In this document: positions 7,827 through 49,419 of the stretch, one piece after another | How positions within the stretch are numbered: position 1 is the first letter of the stretch | How the letters are laid out: every line of letters starts with the position of its first letter | Origin: an uncultured archaeon | GTDB lineage: Archaea; Nanobdellota; Nanobdellia; Pacearchaeales; GW2011-AR1 | NCBI GenBank assembly: GCA_903831045.1 | Contig: CAIKWG010000045.1 | Span: 3,088-67,087 of the forward strand | Length of the DNA stretch: 64,000 nucleotides | Reading direction: 5' to 3' | The notes under the pieces: generated by a model | Told to the model about the DNA's origin: nothing | The model's input: the letters and a program-made list of their open reading frames with translations, nothing else | The model's database searches: none | Program-made: the position numbers and the translations under genes

Positions 7827-8141
7827 ATGGAATTTTGTCCCAAATGTGGTGCTGTTTTAGTACATAAAAAAAGTAGTAATGAATGCCCAAGATGTAAATA
7901 TGTAAAGAAAGGCGCAACATCATTAGCAACATCTGAAAAAACTTTTGAAAAAAAAGAGATTGCAATTGTAAAAGACAAAGATAAGGGAATGGATGTAATG
8001 CCAACAACCTATGAAAAATGTCCAAAATGTGGTTGCGATAAAGCATATTTCTGGTCTGTTCAAACACGGGGAAGCGACGAGGCAGAAACAAAATTCTTCA
8101 AATGTGTTAAATGCACTCATACTCGAAGAGATTATAGTTAA
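7827..8141 (+). CDS. tfs: Transcription factor S / RNA polymerase subunit M
   Basis: N-terminal 'CPKCG...CPRC' ribbon. C-terminal TFIIS-type ribbon 'CPKCGC...QTRGSDEAETKFFKCVKC' has the acidic DE loop. Confidence 0.85.
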   Translation: MEFCPKCGAVLVHKKSSNECPRCKYVKKGATSLATSEKTFEKKEIAIVKDKDKGMDVMPTTYEKCPKCGCDKAYFWSVQTRGSDEAETKFFKCVKCTHTRRDYS

Positions 8142-8170
8142 ATTAAAAAGCAATTTCTACAAAGCAACAA

Positions 8171-8179
8171 TTTTTTAAA
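8171..8179 (+). promoter_or_regulatory. TATA-like box upstream of tRNA-Lys
   Basis: 'ttttttaaa' is centred about 28 nt upstream of tRNA position 1. Confidence 0.4.
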
Positions 8180-8202
8180 CTCACTCTTGCTCAAAATACC
8201 AT

Positions 8203-8277
8203 GGCTCCGTAGCTCAGTCTGGTTAGAGCACTGGACTCTTAATCCAGGTGTCGTGGGTTCAACTCCCATCGGGGCCA
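8203..8277 (+). tRNA. tRNA-Lys (anticodon CUU)
   Basis: Hand-folded cloverleaf: GGCTCCG TA GCTC AGTCTGGTTA GAGC A CTGGA CTCTTAA TCCAG GTGTC GTGGG TTCAACT CCCAT CGGGGCC A. All stems pair. CCA is not encoded. Confidence 0.9.
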
Positions 8278-8295
8278 TAGTTCTTTAAAATAAAT

Positions 8296-8359
8296 GGAGT
8301 TGTGGTTGCTGGACTCCTAGAACCCGCTGGAGGTTGTAGTTCAACTCCCATCGGGGCCA
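8296..8359 (+). ncRNA. tRNA-linked conserved element, copy 1 (core plus duplicated tRNA-Lys 3' end); function unknown
   Basis: 8339-8361 is an exact 23-nt repeat of 8257-8279. Core 8296-8338 is ~88% identical to 35371-35413. Candidate 8-bp hairpin 8317-8324/8332-8339 with a 7-nt loop. Confidence 0.4.
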
Positions 8360-8362
8360 TAA

Positions 8363-8370
8363 TTTTTTTT
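8363..8370 (+). terminator. Oligo-T run (T8) after the tRNA-Lys/element unit
   Basis: Eight consecutive T directly after the element. Archaeal RNAP commonly terminates at oligo-T. Confidence 0.4.
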
Positions 8371-8528
8371 AGAATACATTTAAGTTAGTAATAAATTATC
8401 CGAATAATAAAAAGAATAAACTTCCTAATATAAAATATTCTTCAGAATAAATTCAGTTAAAAAACCATTTTATCTTCTAGCTTTTAACTAAACTTCTCAT
8501 TCAAGGGGCAGGTAGTAATCACCTCTAC

Positions 8529-10396: not shown

Positions 10397-10952
10397 TTTC
10401 TATTTTTTTTGAATATTTAATAATTTCAGTTAAATCTCTATTTCCATAAATAATTCCAACTTCCCCATCATTAGTTTCCCCCTTGAATTCGCAAGCCACA
10501 CAAGGATTTCTCAGAATAGAATCTTTATCAGGATTAGAATCAATACCCATAGGAGATTTACAAGTATGCCTTAATTTCCAAGTTAATTCTTCTGTTTTCC
10601 GATTATAATTTCCCCCAAGATAGGGATACTTTCCAGAAATCAAAATAGATTCTGGATGAAATTCAATTAGATAATTGATTTTATTTGCATTGACTTTTAT
10701 TTCAGAAATATTTCCATTTTCAATAACCAATTTTGCAAGATTGATTTTAAGCTCTCTATTTGAAGTTTCAAAATACAAATTTAATAGTCTATACTCATTA
10801 TTCATAGCATTATACTTATCCCAAACGTCTCCAGCAAGCTCACTTCCATAATCTTCAACTATACTTTTAGTAAGTTGATATTGATATTCTACTTCTTCCT
10901 TTAATTTTTCTATTCTTTTCTTTAATTCTAGTTCAATTTTTTTATTTTCCAT
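10356..10952 (-). CDS. ORFan, coiled-coil N-terminus (operon paralog family, member D)
   Basis: 198-aa ORF starting with 'MENKK' inside the repeated junction. Its C-terminal 'LTEIIKYSKKIENGIKTLFGTL' resembles the tails of the 11597-13315 proteins. Confidence 0.5.
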   Translation of the reverse strand: MENKKIELELKKRIEKLKEEVEYQYQLTKSIVEDYGSELAGDVWDKYNAMNNEYRLLNLYFETSNRELKINLAKLVIENGNISEIKVNANKINYLIEFHPESILISGKYPYLGGNYNRKTEELTWKLRHTCKSPMGIDSNPDKDSILRNPCVACEFKGETNDGEVGIIYGNRDLTEIIKYSKKIENGIKTLFGTLFEE

Positions 10953-11172
10953 TTTCCACTTCTCCTTCCAAACTTTTTTGTTTTTTGTAAGCTACACAGT
11001 TAAGATAATCGTCACATCCCGAATCACAATCTGGATGACCTTGAGGCATTCCATACTCTCCATAATAGGTTCTTAACGTACAAACATAACTTCCTAAAGA
11101 AGAGTAAAGTAAATCATAACCCTCAAATTGAGAGTATGGACAATCTTTTCCACATTGTTTTTTATTTTCCAT
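10942..11172 (-). CDS. Cys/Tyr-rich mini-protein C1 (CPYS family)
   Basis: ATG at 11172 gives 'MENKKQCGKDCPYSQF...'. It has 6 Cys and ends 'EGEVENGK'. It overlaps both neighbours by 11 nt. Confidence 0.5.
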   Translation of the reverse strand: MENKKQCGKDCPYSQFEGYDLLYSSLGSYVCTLRTYYGEYGMPQGHPDCDSGCDDYLNCVAYKKQKSLEGEVENGK

Positions 11173-11374
11173 TTTCCACTTCCTTTTCTTTTTGCATTCG
11201 ATAAACTTCACATTCAAGATGATTAGTTTTTGGACAAATAAGATATCCTAAAGGTTCATAATAATGATCATAAAGTATTCCTAAAGGAAGACATTGATAA
11301 TTCCCTAGAGAACGCAGAGGATCATAAAGATCAAATTTAGAATAAGGACAATCCTTTCCACATTGTTCATTCAT
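11162..11374 (-). CDS. Cys/Tyr-rich mini-protein C2 (CPYS family)
   Basis: ATG at 11374 gives 'MNEQCGKDCPYSKF...'. It ends 'KEVENGK' and is a paralog of C1. Confidence 0.5.
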   Translation of the reverse strand: MNEQCGKDCPYSKFDLYDPLRSLGNYQCLPLGILYDHYYEPLGYLICPKTNHLECEVYRMQKEKEVENGK

Positions 11375-11600
11375 TTTTGACTTCCCCATCCAATTTAATT
11401 TTATTAAGATATTCTAAACATTTCAAATATTCTACACATTCACATCTCAAAAAGATAGATTCGTTCGCAAGAGCATTCTTATTTTCTTGAATAGTACATT
11501 CCCCATATTCTATTGGAAATGGAATTCCAGGAGAGAGATAATAATCTTCATAGTCAATAAGGACGTAAGGACAACCTTCAGAAAAACTATTTGTTATCAT
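11367..11600 (-). CDS. Cys/Tyr-rich mini-protein C3 (divergent CPYS family)
   Basis: '...SEGCPYVLIDYEDYY...' with 5 Cys; ends 'LDGEVKNE'. ATGA overlap with the upstream gene. Confidence 0.45.
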   Translation of the reverse strand: MITNSFSEGCPYVLIDYEDYYLSPGIPFPIEYGECTIQENKNALANESIFLRCECVEYLKCLEYLNKIKLDGEVKNE

Positions 11601-35290: not shown

Positions 35291-35365
35291 GATCCTGTAG
35301 CTCAGCCTGGTTAGAGCGCTGCTCTGATACGGCAGAGGTCCACGGTTCAACTCCGTGCAGGATCA
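35291..35365 (+). tRNA. tRNA-Ile (anticodon GAU)
   Basis: Hand-folded: GATCCTG TA GCTC AGCCTGGTTA GAGC G CTGCT CTGATAC GGCAG AGGTC CACGG TTCAACT CCGTG CAGGATC A. Confidence 0.9.
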
Positions 35366-35370
35366 TTTCG

Positions 35371-35433
35371 GGAGTTGGGTTGCAGGACTCCAAGAACCCG
35401 CAGGTGGTTGTTGTTCAGCTCCGTGCAGGATCA
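35371..35433 (+). ncRNA. tRNA-linked conserved element, copy 2 (core plus duplicated tRNA-Ile 3' end); function unknown
   Basis: 35419-35435 exactly repeats 35351-35367. The core matches 8296-8338. Hairpin 35391-35398/35406-35413 carries a compensatory A:T where copy 1 has T:A. Confidence 0.4.
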
Positions 35434-35471
35434 TTGAAAAAACTTCTAAAACAAGTTTTTCCCGATAAAAA

Positions 35472-46083: not shown

Positions 46084-46713
46084 ATGACAGACCAATTTAA
46101 AAGACACATAGCATACAAGTTAAGAATAGGAGACATACTTCTAGGCAAGCCTATTTTCGATAATGATAAATTCATTAATCTAGAACTTGGAGATAAAAAA
46201 ATAGTAAGAGTGAATGTAATAGGGAATATTGTGGATAAATATGAAGCTGATGGAGATAAAAAGTATATCTTTTTCACATTGGATGACGGATCTGGTCAGA
46301 TAAAATTAAAGATATTTGGAGAAGAAGGATTGAAAAAATTCAAAGGTGTTCTGCAAGGTCAAACAGTTGCAGTAATTGGGACAATAAGAAGCTGGAATAA
46401 TGAAACCTACATTCAGCCAGAAATAATTAAAGAACAGGATTCAAGATATTTATTGGTGAGAAAGTTAGAAATAGAAAAACACAGAAAAGCTTCTGCTCCA
46501 AAAATAGAAGATAAGAAAGAAATAACTGCAATAAAAGATCAAATTTTAGAGAAAATTAAAAAAGCAGAAAATGATGGTGGAATTGACAAGGAAAAAATAA
46601 TTATGGATTTAAGAAATGTTTCTCCGGACATAATTAATCAAGAAATTCAAAAACTTCTAGAAGAAGGAATTATATTTGAACCACGACCAAGCAGACTGAG
46701 ATATTTAGGATAG
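46084..46713 (+). CDS. OB-fold protein, RPA-like single-stranded DNA-binding subunit (tentative)
   Basis: OB-like 'VRVNVIGNIVDKY...FFTLDDGSGQIKLKIFG...VAVIGTIRSWN' plus a C-terminal wHTH-like tail. Adjacent to mcm. Confidence 0.45.
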   Translation: MTDQFKRHIAYKLRIGDILLGKPIFDNDKFINLELGDKKIVRVNVIGNIVDKYEADGDKKYIFFTLDDGSGQIKLKIFGEEGLKKFKGVLQGQTVAVIGTIRSWNNETYIQPEIIKEQDSRYLLVRKLEIEKHRKASAPKIEDKKEITAIKDQILEKIKKAENDGGIDKEKIIMDLRNVSPDIINQEIQKLLEEGIIFEPRPSRLRYLG

Positions 46714-49301: not shown

Positions 49302-49419
49302 GCCCTGATAGCTCAGTTGGTTAGAGCGAACGGCTGTTAAGTCAGAGAAAAACTGACTCACAAGAAATTGTGATTTCGCAGCAACCGTTAGGTCGTAGGT
49401 TCGAGTCCTACTCGGGGCG
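49302..49419 (+). tRNA. tRNA-Asn (anticodon GUU) with 44-nt intron at canonical 37/38 position
   Basis: Exon 1 is 49302-49339 (GCCCTGA TA GCTC AGTTGGTTA GAGC G AACGG CTGTTA). The intron is 49340-49383. Exon 2 is 49384-49419 (A CCGTT AGGTC GTAGG TTCGAGT CCTAC TCGGGGC G). Confidence 0.85.

Follow-up and report, generated by a model that had tools for sequence, protein, structure and literature searches.

The stretch of DNA analysed here, referred to as the window, comprises 64,000 nt of contig CAIKWG010000045.1 (assembly GCA_903831045.1, positions 3,088–67,087) from an uncultured archaeon of the Pacearchaeales. It is AT-rich DNA of a DPANN (Diapherotrites, Parvarchaeota, Aenigmarchaeota, Nanoarchaeota and Nanohaloarchaeota) archaeon, in which TFS, CDC48, MetRS, L15e and rubrerythrin are encoded, and the best matches of its proteins carry Nanoarchaeota or Pacearchaeota labels. 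On the forward strand, two intact tRNA genes, tRNA-Lys(CTT) and tRNA-Ile(GAT), are each followed by a short composite element that ends in a second copy of the 3′ end of the same tRNA gene. These elements, and the repeat family to which they belong, are the subject of this analysis.

The tRNA-Lys(CTT) gene occupies 8203–8277 (69.9 bits against Rfam RF00005, and also called by ARAGORN). Its end, from G53 to two nucleotides past the discriminator, is copy 1 of a direct repeat (GTTCAACTCCCATCGGGGCCATA, 8257–8279) and lies within the functional tRNA. An A/T-rich spacer (8280–8293; 0–12 nt at other tRNA-linked loci) leads to a segment designated X′ (AUGGAGUUG, 8294–8302), which is an inverted copy of the T-loop and T-stem 3′ strand (flank-helix shuffle test, p=0.01); within it, GGAGTTG (8296–8302) is the exact 7-nt complement of CAACTCC at 8342–8348 and also at 8260–8266. 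The 36-nt core of the family follows (GGTTGCTGGACTCCTAGAACCCGCTGGAGGTTGTAG, 8304–8339), with hairpin P2 (core positions 14–36, 8317–8339) and a Shine–Dalgarno-like (SD-like) GGAGG (8329–8333) inside it. Copy 2 of the repeat (8339–8361) duplicates the tRNA 3′ end exactly over 23 nt and has G8339 in common with the core, and a T8 run is present at 8363–8370. Both the exact repeat and the T8 run, reported in an earlier note on this DNA, can be read directly from the sequence; the repeat lengthens to 26 nt when one mismatch is allowed, and the cargo between its copies is 59 nt. Archaeal transcription terminates at oligo-T, and the T8 run is probably the original tRNA-Lys terminator, shifted downstream; no hairpin-type terminator was found in the T8 run region.

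At tRNA-Ile(GAT) (35291–35365; Rfam, 67 bits) the layout is the same, as had been claimed, with copy 1 at 35345–35367, X′ (GGAGTTG; sequence and flank-helix test) at 35371–35377, the core at 35378–35413, copy 2 at 35413–35435 and 45 nt of cargo. The Ile core is a variant with A7, A15, A25, T28 and T35, as seen in the sequence and at orthologous loci, and copy 2 has a single mismatch, A58>G at 35418, which would be harmful in a tRNA and which retains a G-U pair with X′. The earlier note had described a 43-nt core common to the two loci. The shared core is real, but its boundaries are not those proposed: the conserved unit is 36 nt, and the GGAGTTG before it is outside the family consensus and represents, at each locus, an inverted copy of the CAACTCC of the adjacent tRNA. 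X′ is identical at both window loci because both tRNAs carry CAACTCC in the T-loop/T-stem. It is plausible, judging from the arrangement of the sequence, that the element is co-transcribed with its tRNA; the gap between tRNA and X′ at the Ile locus is only 5 nt.

The core is apparently an undescribed hairpin repeat of Woese-/Pacearchaeota-type DPANN archaea and is almost invariant over its 36 nt, with the reservation that two search patterns together fixed most of positions 1–32, so that invariance there is partly built in. In 185,579 species genomes, the exact pattern of the central 21 nt was present in 11 contigs from 10 metagenome-assembled genomes (MAGs) of Woese-, Pace- or Nanoarchaeota, and four further matches, in bacterial open reading frames (ORFs), are there by chance. 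A scan of JGI and ENA metagenomes identified at least 80 loci and, after deduplication, MAGs and metagenomes together contain at least 83 distinct copies of the core. The search of genomes and metagenomes for which the earlier note had called has therefore found many further copies, and the covariance model it had proposed was built from the family; the window Lys core scores 50.7 bits against it. The copy counts, context classes and covariation counts given here are for the 83 distinct copies among the matches listed, and individual loci are identified by L numbers. Searches with nhmmer and the covariance model in 0.52–0.56 Mb of fetched related contigs recovered the known copies and added only a few diverged relatives and no broader divergent family; these were main-type copies with altered ends (L029, L075, L043/L048, and L038/L044) and apical-loop variants (L015, L013, and L011). 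In the window, pattern, nhmmer and covariance-model searches found the core in two places only, with no additional copy from the latter two and a chance expectation of 0 for the long pattern. Upstream of the core there is a weak preference for AAT, with T at −1 in 69 % of 39 copies of the class that precedes start codons (the mRNA class).

There was no genuine match to the core in IMG/VR, among the INPHARED phages or among the PLSDB plasmids, and a viral, phage or plasmid origin was rejected on this basis. Rfam gave no match on the element when the whole window was searched at the gathering threshold, and for 8100–8500 searched against Rfam 15 at E<=10 the only overlapping matches were at chance level (E 6.9–9.1, far under the gathering score). 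No description of the repeat was found in the literature, using the sequence string and topics covering DPANN, the bulge-helix-bulge (BHB) motif and Woesearchaeota tRNA.

All clean tRNA-linked loci have the order tRNA, 0–12 nt, X′, 0–4 nt, core, and duplicate. The core is present after more than 10 different tRNA species, each with its own duplicate, and the cargo of 41–59 nt has the same internal order; those named at clean loci include Lys, Ile, Gly, Gln, Ala, and Leu, with Val at degenerate loci. A shared core fused to a tRNA-specific tail, as proposed from the two window loci, is therefore general. The direct repeat is 22–26 nt in every clean locus, even in a shifted one (L018). The duplicate begins at T54, so placed that core G36 coincides with G53, except in L018, where position 58 is its start; it ends 1–9 nt beyond the discriminator, with no CCA. 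X′ is 7–11 nt in length, is the complement of the start of the duplicate (T-loop and T-stem 3′ strand) and is specific to the tRNA at each locus. Its complementarity has p<=0.05 in 13 of the 15 tRNA-linked copies listed (flank-helix shuffle test), and across the tRNA-linked loci X′ and the T-loop part of the duplicate covary as pairing partners. At seven loci X′ starts 0–5 nt past copy 1, and its last nucleotide complements position 55 or 56. A subfamily of the core with A7 and T28 is common to the Ile and Leu loci and L085, and because X′ and the duplicate differ at each of these, both are likely to be derived from the target at insertion and not to travel with the element.

Some tRNA loci are more complex. 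The order downstream of tRNA-Lys on the minus strand of L014 (4630–4930) is X′ (GGATTTGAACC), an insert of 95 nt, a partial 3′ duplicate, two tandem cores, and a third 3′ duplicate that is interrupted by a 50-nt insert past T-loop position 60. Downstream of tRNA-Ile in L105/L106 (1427–1460) there is a palindrome, GAGGATTTG|TTCAAATCCCG, made of X′ abutting a T-loop duplicate of ~10 nt without a core, which could be a precursor site or the remains after core loss. In L100 (1240–1400), a minus-strand tRNA-Ile has an anticodon-loop insertion of ~70 nt and was not called by ARAGORN.

The 3′ two-thirds of the core form a hairpin with pairs 14–36, 15–35, 16–34, (G17.G33), 18–32, 19–31, 20–30, 21–29, and 22–27, and there is an extra pair, 7:28, in which A28, bulged in the hairpin, covaries with U7. 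The GGAGG in the apical part corresponds to core positions 26–30. Among the positions that the search patterns left free, Watson–Crick covariation is seen at 15:35 (UA 63, AU 12, and GC 1) and at 7:28 (UA 64 and AU 10), so that pairing is conserved among the additional copies. When the hairpin model was applied to 35 distinct sequences, 93.7 % of cells were paired; the covariation score was 0.142 versus 0.050 in shuffles, none of 500 shuffles scored as high, and the score collapsed when the partners were slid. The hairpin is independently supported by three variant copies (L015:1201, L013:2163, and L011), which retain GACTCCTAGAACC...GGTTGTAG and have an extra A/U stem-loop in place of the apical loop. 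One of two interpretations put forward in the earlier note was a structured RNA, released from a dimeric precursor, whose tail can pair with the 5′ acceptor strand of the tRNA. The core is indeed structured, as the covariation demonstrates, but the pairing of the tail with the acceptor strand is unsupported; it is X′ and the T-loop part that covary instead.

Other identities considered for the core were rejected. On inspection, K-turn, sarcin-ricin, preQ1-like pseudoknot, and small self-cleaving ribozyme motifs are either incompatible with the covariation at 15:35 and 7:28 or lack their signature nucleotides. A protein-coding core would make the changes at 7, 22, 25, and 28 synonymous in frame 2 (VAGLLEPAGGCR) and those at 3 and 15 synonymous in frame 1 (GCWTPRTRWRL*). 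Neither frame explains all of the variation and the downstream ORFs are in all phases, therefore the coding interpretation was dropped in favour of RNA pairing.

The position of the element within a repeated tRNA 3′ end invites comparison with an intron or a split tRNA, in which splicing endonuclease would remove an 82-nt T-loop insertion (copy 1, spacer, X′, and core) or in which trans-splicing would supply the fragment as a 3′ piece. X′ complements adjacent exon-like sequence, as intron segments do, the distal copy is the partner of the 5′ acceptor strand in the minimum free energy fold of the complete Lys transcript, and the copy in L031 is inside a canonical 37/38 intron of a tRNA-Lys. However, on inspection no BHB could be built at G53|T54 and G36|T54 in any register, the folds showing X′:X or X′:core helices together with P2, and only L031 has a normal BHB, to which its own exon and flank contribute the strands. 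Upstream, the tRNA needs no completion, copy 2 at the Ile locus has G at the universally conserved A58, and the duplicate includes 1–9 nt of trailer. The window has no complementary partner of the core on either strand, only the two same-sense copies, and the tRNA model RF00005 has no match on the element (8280–8370) even at E<=10, with only 8203–8277 scoring. A BHB intron or split tRNA is therefore rejected at the window loci, in agreement with the earlier note, which had classed the element as neither tRNA nor split-tRNA half, and for the family this explanation is very improbable.

The second interpretation in the earlier note was a footprint of an integrase-bearing element that targets tRNA genes. 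In this case the repeats would be attL and attR of a conventional virus or plasmid with a tyrosine integrase, and the core a terminal fragment left after deletion. The segment from the T-loop to the 3′ end is the classic attB of tRNA-targeting integrases, and the direct repeats span this segment plus a few nucleotides, at 23 nt in the window and 22–26 nt elsewhere. The region of TFS and tRNA-Lys is also rearranged in close relatives, where there is an extra DUF7768 gene. Against such a scar, the 41–59-nt cargo in the same order at more than 10 tRNA species would need independent deletions ending at identical nucleotides. No integrase was found at either window locus (Pfam, 10 neighbouring ORFs), the core is missing from the viral, phage, and plasmid collections, and most copies are away from tRNA genes. 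A scar of this kind is thus improbable.

Orthologues of the tRNA-Ile locus beside L15e were reached via L15e homologues and include a filled and an empty site. L098 (SRR11049220) and L099 (JGI Ga0172373) have identical L15e and are identical over ~400 nt save for one single nucleotide polymorphism and a 67-nt indel, which is exactly X′, the core, and the 25-nt duplicate. The filled site in L099 reads ...ATCATTTAG|GAGTTG-core-TTCAACTCCGTGCAGGATCATTTAG|TTATATT and the empty site in L098 reads ...ATCATTTAG|TTATATT. A recombination origin had been favoured in the earlier note, and an insertion origin is indicated by these near-identical strains; an integrase-bearing element as the source of the inserted DNA is not supported. 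More distant relatives have no element (L102, L104, and L112) or, in L105, only the palindrome of X′ and X. The Ile core with its five variant positions is present in the window, L099/L041, and L084, identical in the first two and 34/36 identical with the same five variants in L084, while the window tRNA-Lys core is standard; the Ile locus therefore appears to be vertically inherited and not homogenised within the genome, and so the state of L098 may be a precise loss. Elsewhere, L043 and L038/L044 have an identical unit of upstream gene, long core, and core that is joined to different downstream genes, a core-TTGTAAAAT-core unit is in both L034 and L059, likewise at non-homologous loci, tandem core arrays are present in L029 and L095, and the RPA gene of the window (46084) is without the core that its orthologue in L052 has.

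Taken together, the element is best interpreted as a miniature, non-autonomous mobile structured repeat that has spread and been rearranged in these genomes and is tolerated or partly domesticated, and not as the footprint of a large integrative element, an intron, or a split tRNA; we put the probability of this at roughly 0.55. It shares with miniature inverted-repeat transposable elements (MITEs) and repetitive extragenic palindromic (REP) sequences the presence of many near-identical copies at unrelated loci (the at least 83 copies, with composite units at non-homologous loci) and presence/absence polymorphism with target duplication (L098 versus L099). In the mechanism proposed, the core would enter the tRNA gene at the start of the T-loop, G53|T54, where two nicks about two helical turns apart would leave 3′ overhangs. 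The left overhang may fold back and be filled in to give X′, which is proposed because X′ starts 0–5 nt after copy 1 at the seven loci and ends 1–2 nt before T54. At the right overhang, fill-in would proceed from the core 3′ end, producing the precise core|T54 junction and copy 2, and the original 3′ end with its T-run terminator would be pushed downstream. Because the duplicate of 22–26 nt spans the 3′ end of the gene, the upstream copy stays an intact tRNA. The window elements are probably transcribed as a tRNA 3′ trailer up to the displaced T8, with RNase Z freeing the tRNA, and X′ may sequester the duplicated T-loop strand so that the fragment leaves tRNA folding undisturbed.

Several points weigh against this interpretation. 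No transposase, integrase, or reverse transcriptase is linked to the family, no candidate enzyme of the transposase or REP-associated tyrosine transposase (RAYT) type was found, and the core ends have no terminal inverted repeats in their sequence. To our knowledge, a 22–26-nt duplication matches no known transposase family. Target duplication is clear at only one locus of the mRNA class and marginal at two, so that a single mechanism for all classes would be hypothetical. Active insertion is suggested by the comparison of strains, and the empty allele of L098 could equally be a precise loss through recombination between the 25-nt repeats, and not necessarily a site that had never received the insertion. 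The core is also identical at 36 of 36 positions between the window and L099, where the adjoining downstream intergenic DNA has diverged; a core far better conserved than its surroundings, with locus variants inherited across species, indicates purifying selection and hence function, as opposed to an insertion that is merely tolerated.

The contexts of the copies bear on this question of function. Thirty-eight copies are 0–3 nt upstream of the ATG of real ORFs, the genes including L11, S3Ae, S8, S17e, S14, L40e, Nop10, EF-1beta, PheRS-beta, proteasome beta, SBDS, RPA, and PolB, and 22 copies are after tRNA genes with a duplicated tRNA 3′ end. Three copies abut tRNA position +1 (L051 tRNA-Glu, L082 tRNA-Arg, and L061), three from two species are in frame within topA (L013 and L040), one is inside the canonical intron of L031, and 16 are in other contexts, including gene 3′ ends (L006, L030, and L054) and tandem arrays (L029, L044, and L059). 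In the mRNA class, the ATG is 0 nt after the core in 22 copies, 1 nt in 12, 2 nt in two, and 3 nt in two, which gives an SD spacing of 6–9 nt. GGAGG with A28 is intact in 36 of the 38 copies of this class versus 12 of the 22 tRNA-linked copies. The complementarity of the core to what we take to be the archaeal 16S 3′-end consensus ends at the 6-nt SD. A short upstream ORF reads into the core in 29 of the 38; frame 1 is used 17 times, frame 2 18 times, and frame 3 only 2 times (p=6e-5). The stop is TAG 15–17 in the frame that is avoided and TAG 34–36 in frame 1, and in frame 2 it is commonly part of an ATGA overlap. In a core-less orthologue, the ATG is ~25 nt downstream of a TATA-like box, in a leaderless-like arrangement, and at filled loci it is the upstream ATG that sits there. 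The core as a promoter or fixed transcription start was rejected, as TATA-like boxes do not occur at a constant distance from it. At both window copies, no AUG of a real ORF is found 5–10 nt after GGAGG; tRNA fragments follow, not an ORF. Neither target duplication nor a flanking helix is significant across the mRNA class in general; the ORF start is clearly duplicated in L044/L038 alone (ATGACAGAAAGAAATTGGAAT versus ATGACAGCAAGCGATTGGAAC, 17/21 identical), and marginally so in L032 and L063.

Near invariance, SD placement, and the frame bias of the upstream ORFs suggest, from the sequence comparisons, that translation-apparatus genes have in common a signal for translation or processing. If the core is indeed a mobile repeat, its retention before start codons, with GGAGG 6–9 nt from the AUG and upstream ORFs reading through, would mean that the family is partly domesticated. 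Alternatively, the core could be a functional RNA module under selection, a hairpin that binds protein or RNA on translation-apparatus transcripts (ribosomal protein mRNAs, EF-1beta, and tRNAs) and coordinates their processing, stability, or translation, with mobility secondary or ancient. At tRNA genes this would take the form of a dicistronic gene for a tRNA and a small RNA, the latter (X′, core, and tail) being freed by RNase Z and ending at the T-run. Besides the placement of the AUG 0–3 nt after the core, the better preservation of GGAGG in the mRNA class and the shunning of the frame that stops inside the core, this is supported by near invariance of the core across species whose flanking proteins are 50–90 % identical. 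It is also supported by orthologues that carry the core, namely rpl11 (L026/L047/L089), an S3Ae-like gene (L032/L078/L088), the 'ITLRKYEKP' gene (L004/L012/L090), and tRNA-Ile (window/L099/L084), and by copy 2 staying identical to the tRNA, its single change preserving the pairing with X′. On the other hand, copies in ORFs, at 3′ ends where they supply stops, in a tRNA intron, in tandem arrays, and in opposite orientation by a tRNA are ill-suited to one cis role, and there are close strains and orthologues without the core (L098 and the window RPA gene). The 64-kb window has only two copies, with none before the RPA-like gene at 46084 or the L060 orthologue (18402–17260), both of which have core-bearing orthologues elsewhere, and there is no Rfam family and no known binding partner. 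A functional module is therefore possible, although we consider it the less probable explanation.

Three of these contexts were seen in more detail at individual loci. The in-frame copies in topoisomerase IA (L013, 6098–6133; L040, 625–660) read VAGLLEPAGGCR or AAGLLEPAGGCR and are at the same site, with diverged flanking codons. In L006 (4970), L030 (979, reverse complement), and L054 (3212), orthologous genes with the C-terminus ...AKEAV get their last codons and stop from the core, the stop being core TAG 15–17 or a TAG formed with G1. In L029 (536–700), a four-unit tandem core array with period 42 and spacer AACAGCTTAG lies beside the 3′ end of an opposite-strand tRNA.

Other inserts have a similar layout. 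At the tRNA 5′ ends of L098/L099 (Ile), L023, and L107 (both Lys), inserts of 57–79 nt lie between direct duplications of 12–25 nt of the tRNA 5′ part. These inserts are two elements designated B (AAGGAACCAAGGTTCCTT...CAACCTCCTT) and C, each of which holds an inverted copy of the duplicated segment. Their breakpoints are in or beside the D-loop and T-loop and the duplicate always extends to the gene end, therefore one intact tRNA copy survives. In L098 (1290–1370) and L099 (125–205), a 63-nt element B (GGTAAGGAACCAAGGTTCCTTGACCTTCAACCTCCTTGAAGAA, AGCTACAAGATC, and AAAACAGAA) at tRNA-Ile +12 is flanked by a direct duplication of 12 nt from the tRNA 5′ end, with the inverted copy inside, and is absent from the tRNA-Ile of the window. 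Upstream of tRNA-Lys(TTT) on the minus strand of L023 (8876–9150) there are three nested copies of its 5′ part, which extend to +14, +14, and +23 and have two copies of element B and an element C between them; the same tRNA has the 36-nt core at its 3′ side.

In a broader and more speculative version of the mobile-repeat interpretation, a new DPANN system would place short structured RNAs or DNAs (the core as element A, together with B and C) at loops and transcript termini of strongly expressed genes, leaving duplications of about two helical turns and a fold-back copy of the target. It might be RNA-templated, like short interspersed nuclear elements (SINEs), or use a new staggered-cut integrase, and the hairpin would then have been domesticated as a leader or trailer signal coupling the expression of tRNAs and ribosomal protein mRNAs. 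As a whole this remains doubtful.

Among known systems, REP/BIME-type and MITE-like repeats (REP with RAYT, Correia/NEMIS, ERIC, BOX, and RUP) are likewise short (20–150 nt), multi-copy, hairpin-forming, and highly conserved in consensus. They are also strand-specific with respect to genes, transcribed within neighbouring RNAs, sometimes regulatory, and polymorphic in presence between strains. The core differs in being in DPANN archaea, in having no terminal inverted repeats and no known RAYT or transposase, and in its exact placement (0–3 nt before start codons, or at tRNA T54 or +1) with a 22–26-nt duplication and an inverted target copy; its conservation across species is far above what is usual for MITEs. 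Rickettsia palindromic elements are small selfish repeats tolerated in frame in essential genes and beside RNA genes, comparable with topA here (VAGLLEPAGGCR in L013/L040), but are 100–150 bp, bacterial, and without tRNA-end duplication or SD-type placement. Archaeal att duplications (SSV-type and pNOB8-type) also have a direct repeat from the T-loop to the tRNA 3′ end with an intact tRNA regenerated upstream, and casposons and CRISPR integrases also make long duplications (14–37 bp). The core, in contrast, is without integrase or casposase, has 41–59 nt of cargo, combines one cargo with many tRNA-specific repeats, and is accompanied by the inverted copy X′. Non-long-terminal-repeat retroposons and SINEs, which use target-primed reverse transcription, resemble it in the precise 3′ junction, the 5′ junction, which varies and contains additional nucleotides and inverted segments, the variable target duplications (12–28 nt), and the preference for highly transcribed small-RNA genes. 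With a core of only 36 nt, no A-tail, no linked reverse transcriptase, and no archaeal precedent, the resemblance is one of footprint only. Archaeal BHB introns and split-tRNA leaders (Nanoarchaeum and Caldivirga) similarly have a conserved sequence directly 5′ of the tRNA 3′ segment and a flank that complements the exon, and one core copy is in a canonical intron; they differ from the core in that it has no BHB motif, no complementary partner in the window, and a complete adjoining tRNA.

Woese-/Pacearchaeota-type DPANN genomes are thought to be streamlined and repeat-poor, and the organisms carrying the core are not yet culturable. If confirmed, this would be the first miniature structured repeat family described in such genomes. 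It would affect annotation, through short upstream ORFs, false N-terminal extensions, putative 12-aa in-frame inserts, pseudo-tRNA fragments, and contig breaks. The family also provides a concrete case of tRNA genes gaining partial duplications and D-loop or T-loop inserts, the raw material from which models derive the split, permuted, and intron-bearing tRNA genes of archaea.

The tRNA-Lys adjacent to TFS differs in strains with 92–96 % identical TFS (L107, 1516–2000; L108 and L110). In L107 the tRNA-Lys is inverted, has compensatory acceptor and T-stem changes compared with the window, and has inserts on its 5′ side, not the core on its 3′ side; TFS and the tRNA are separated by an inserted DUF7768 gene in L108 and L110. 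The TFS/tRNA-Lys locus is a rearrangement hotspot. The third tRNA of the window, tRNA-Asn(GTT) at 49302–49419 (Rfam, 58.8 bits), was missed by ARAGORN; it has a canonical anticodon-loop intron of ~43 nt and no core element downstream. Three tandem paralogous small ORFs without a Pfam match are at 10942–11600 on the minus strand of the window, encoding cysteine-rich products of 75–91 aa with the motif CGKDCPYS / EGCPY....

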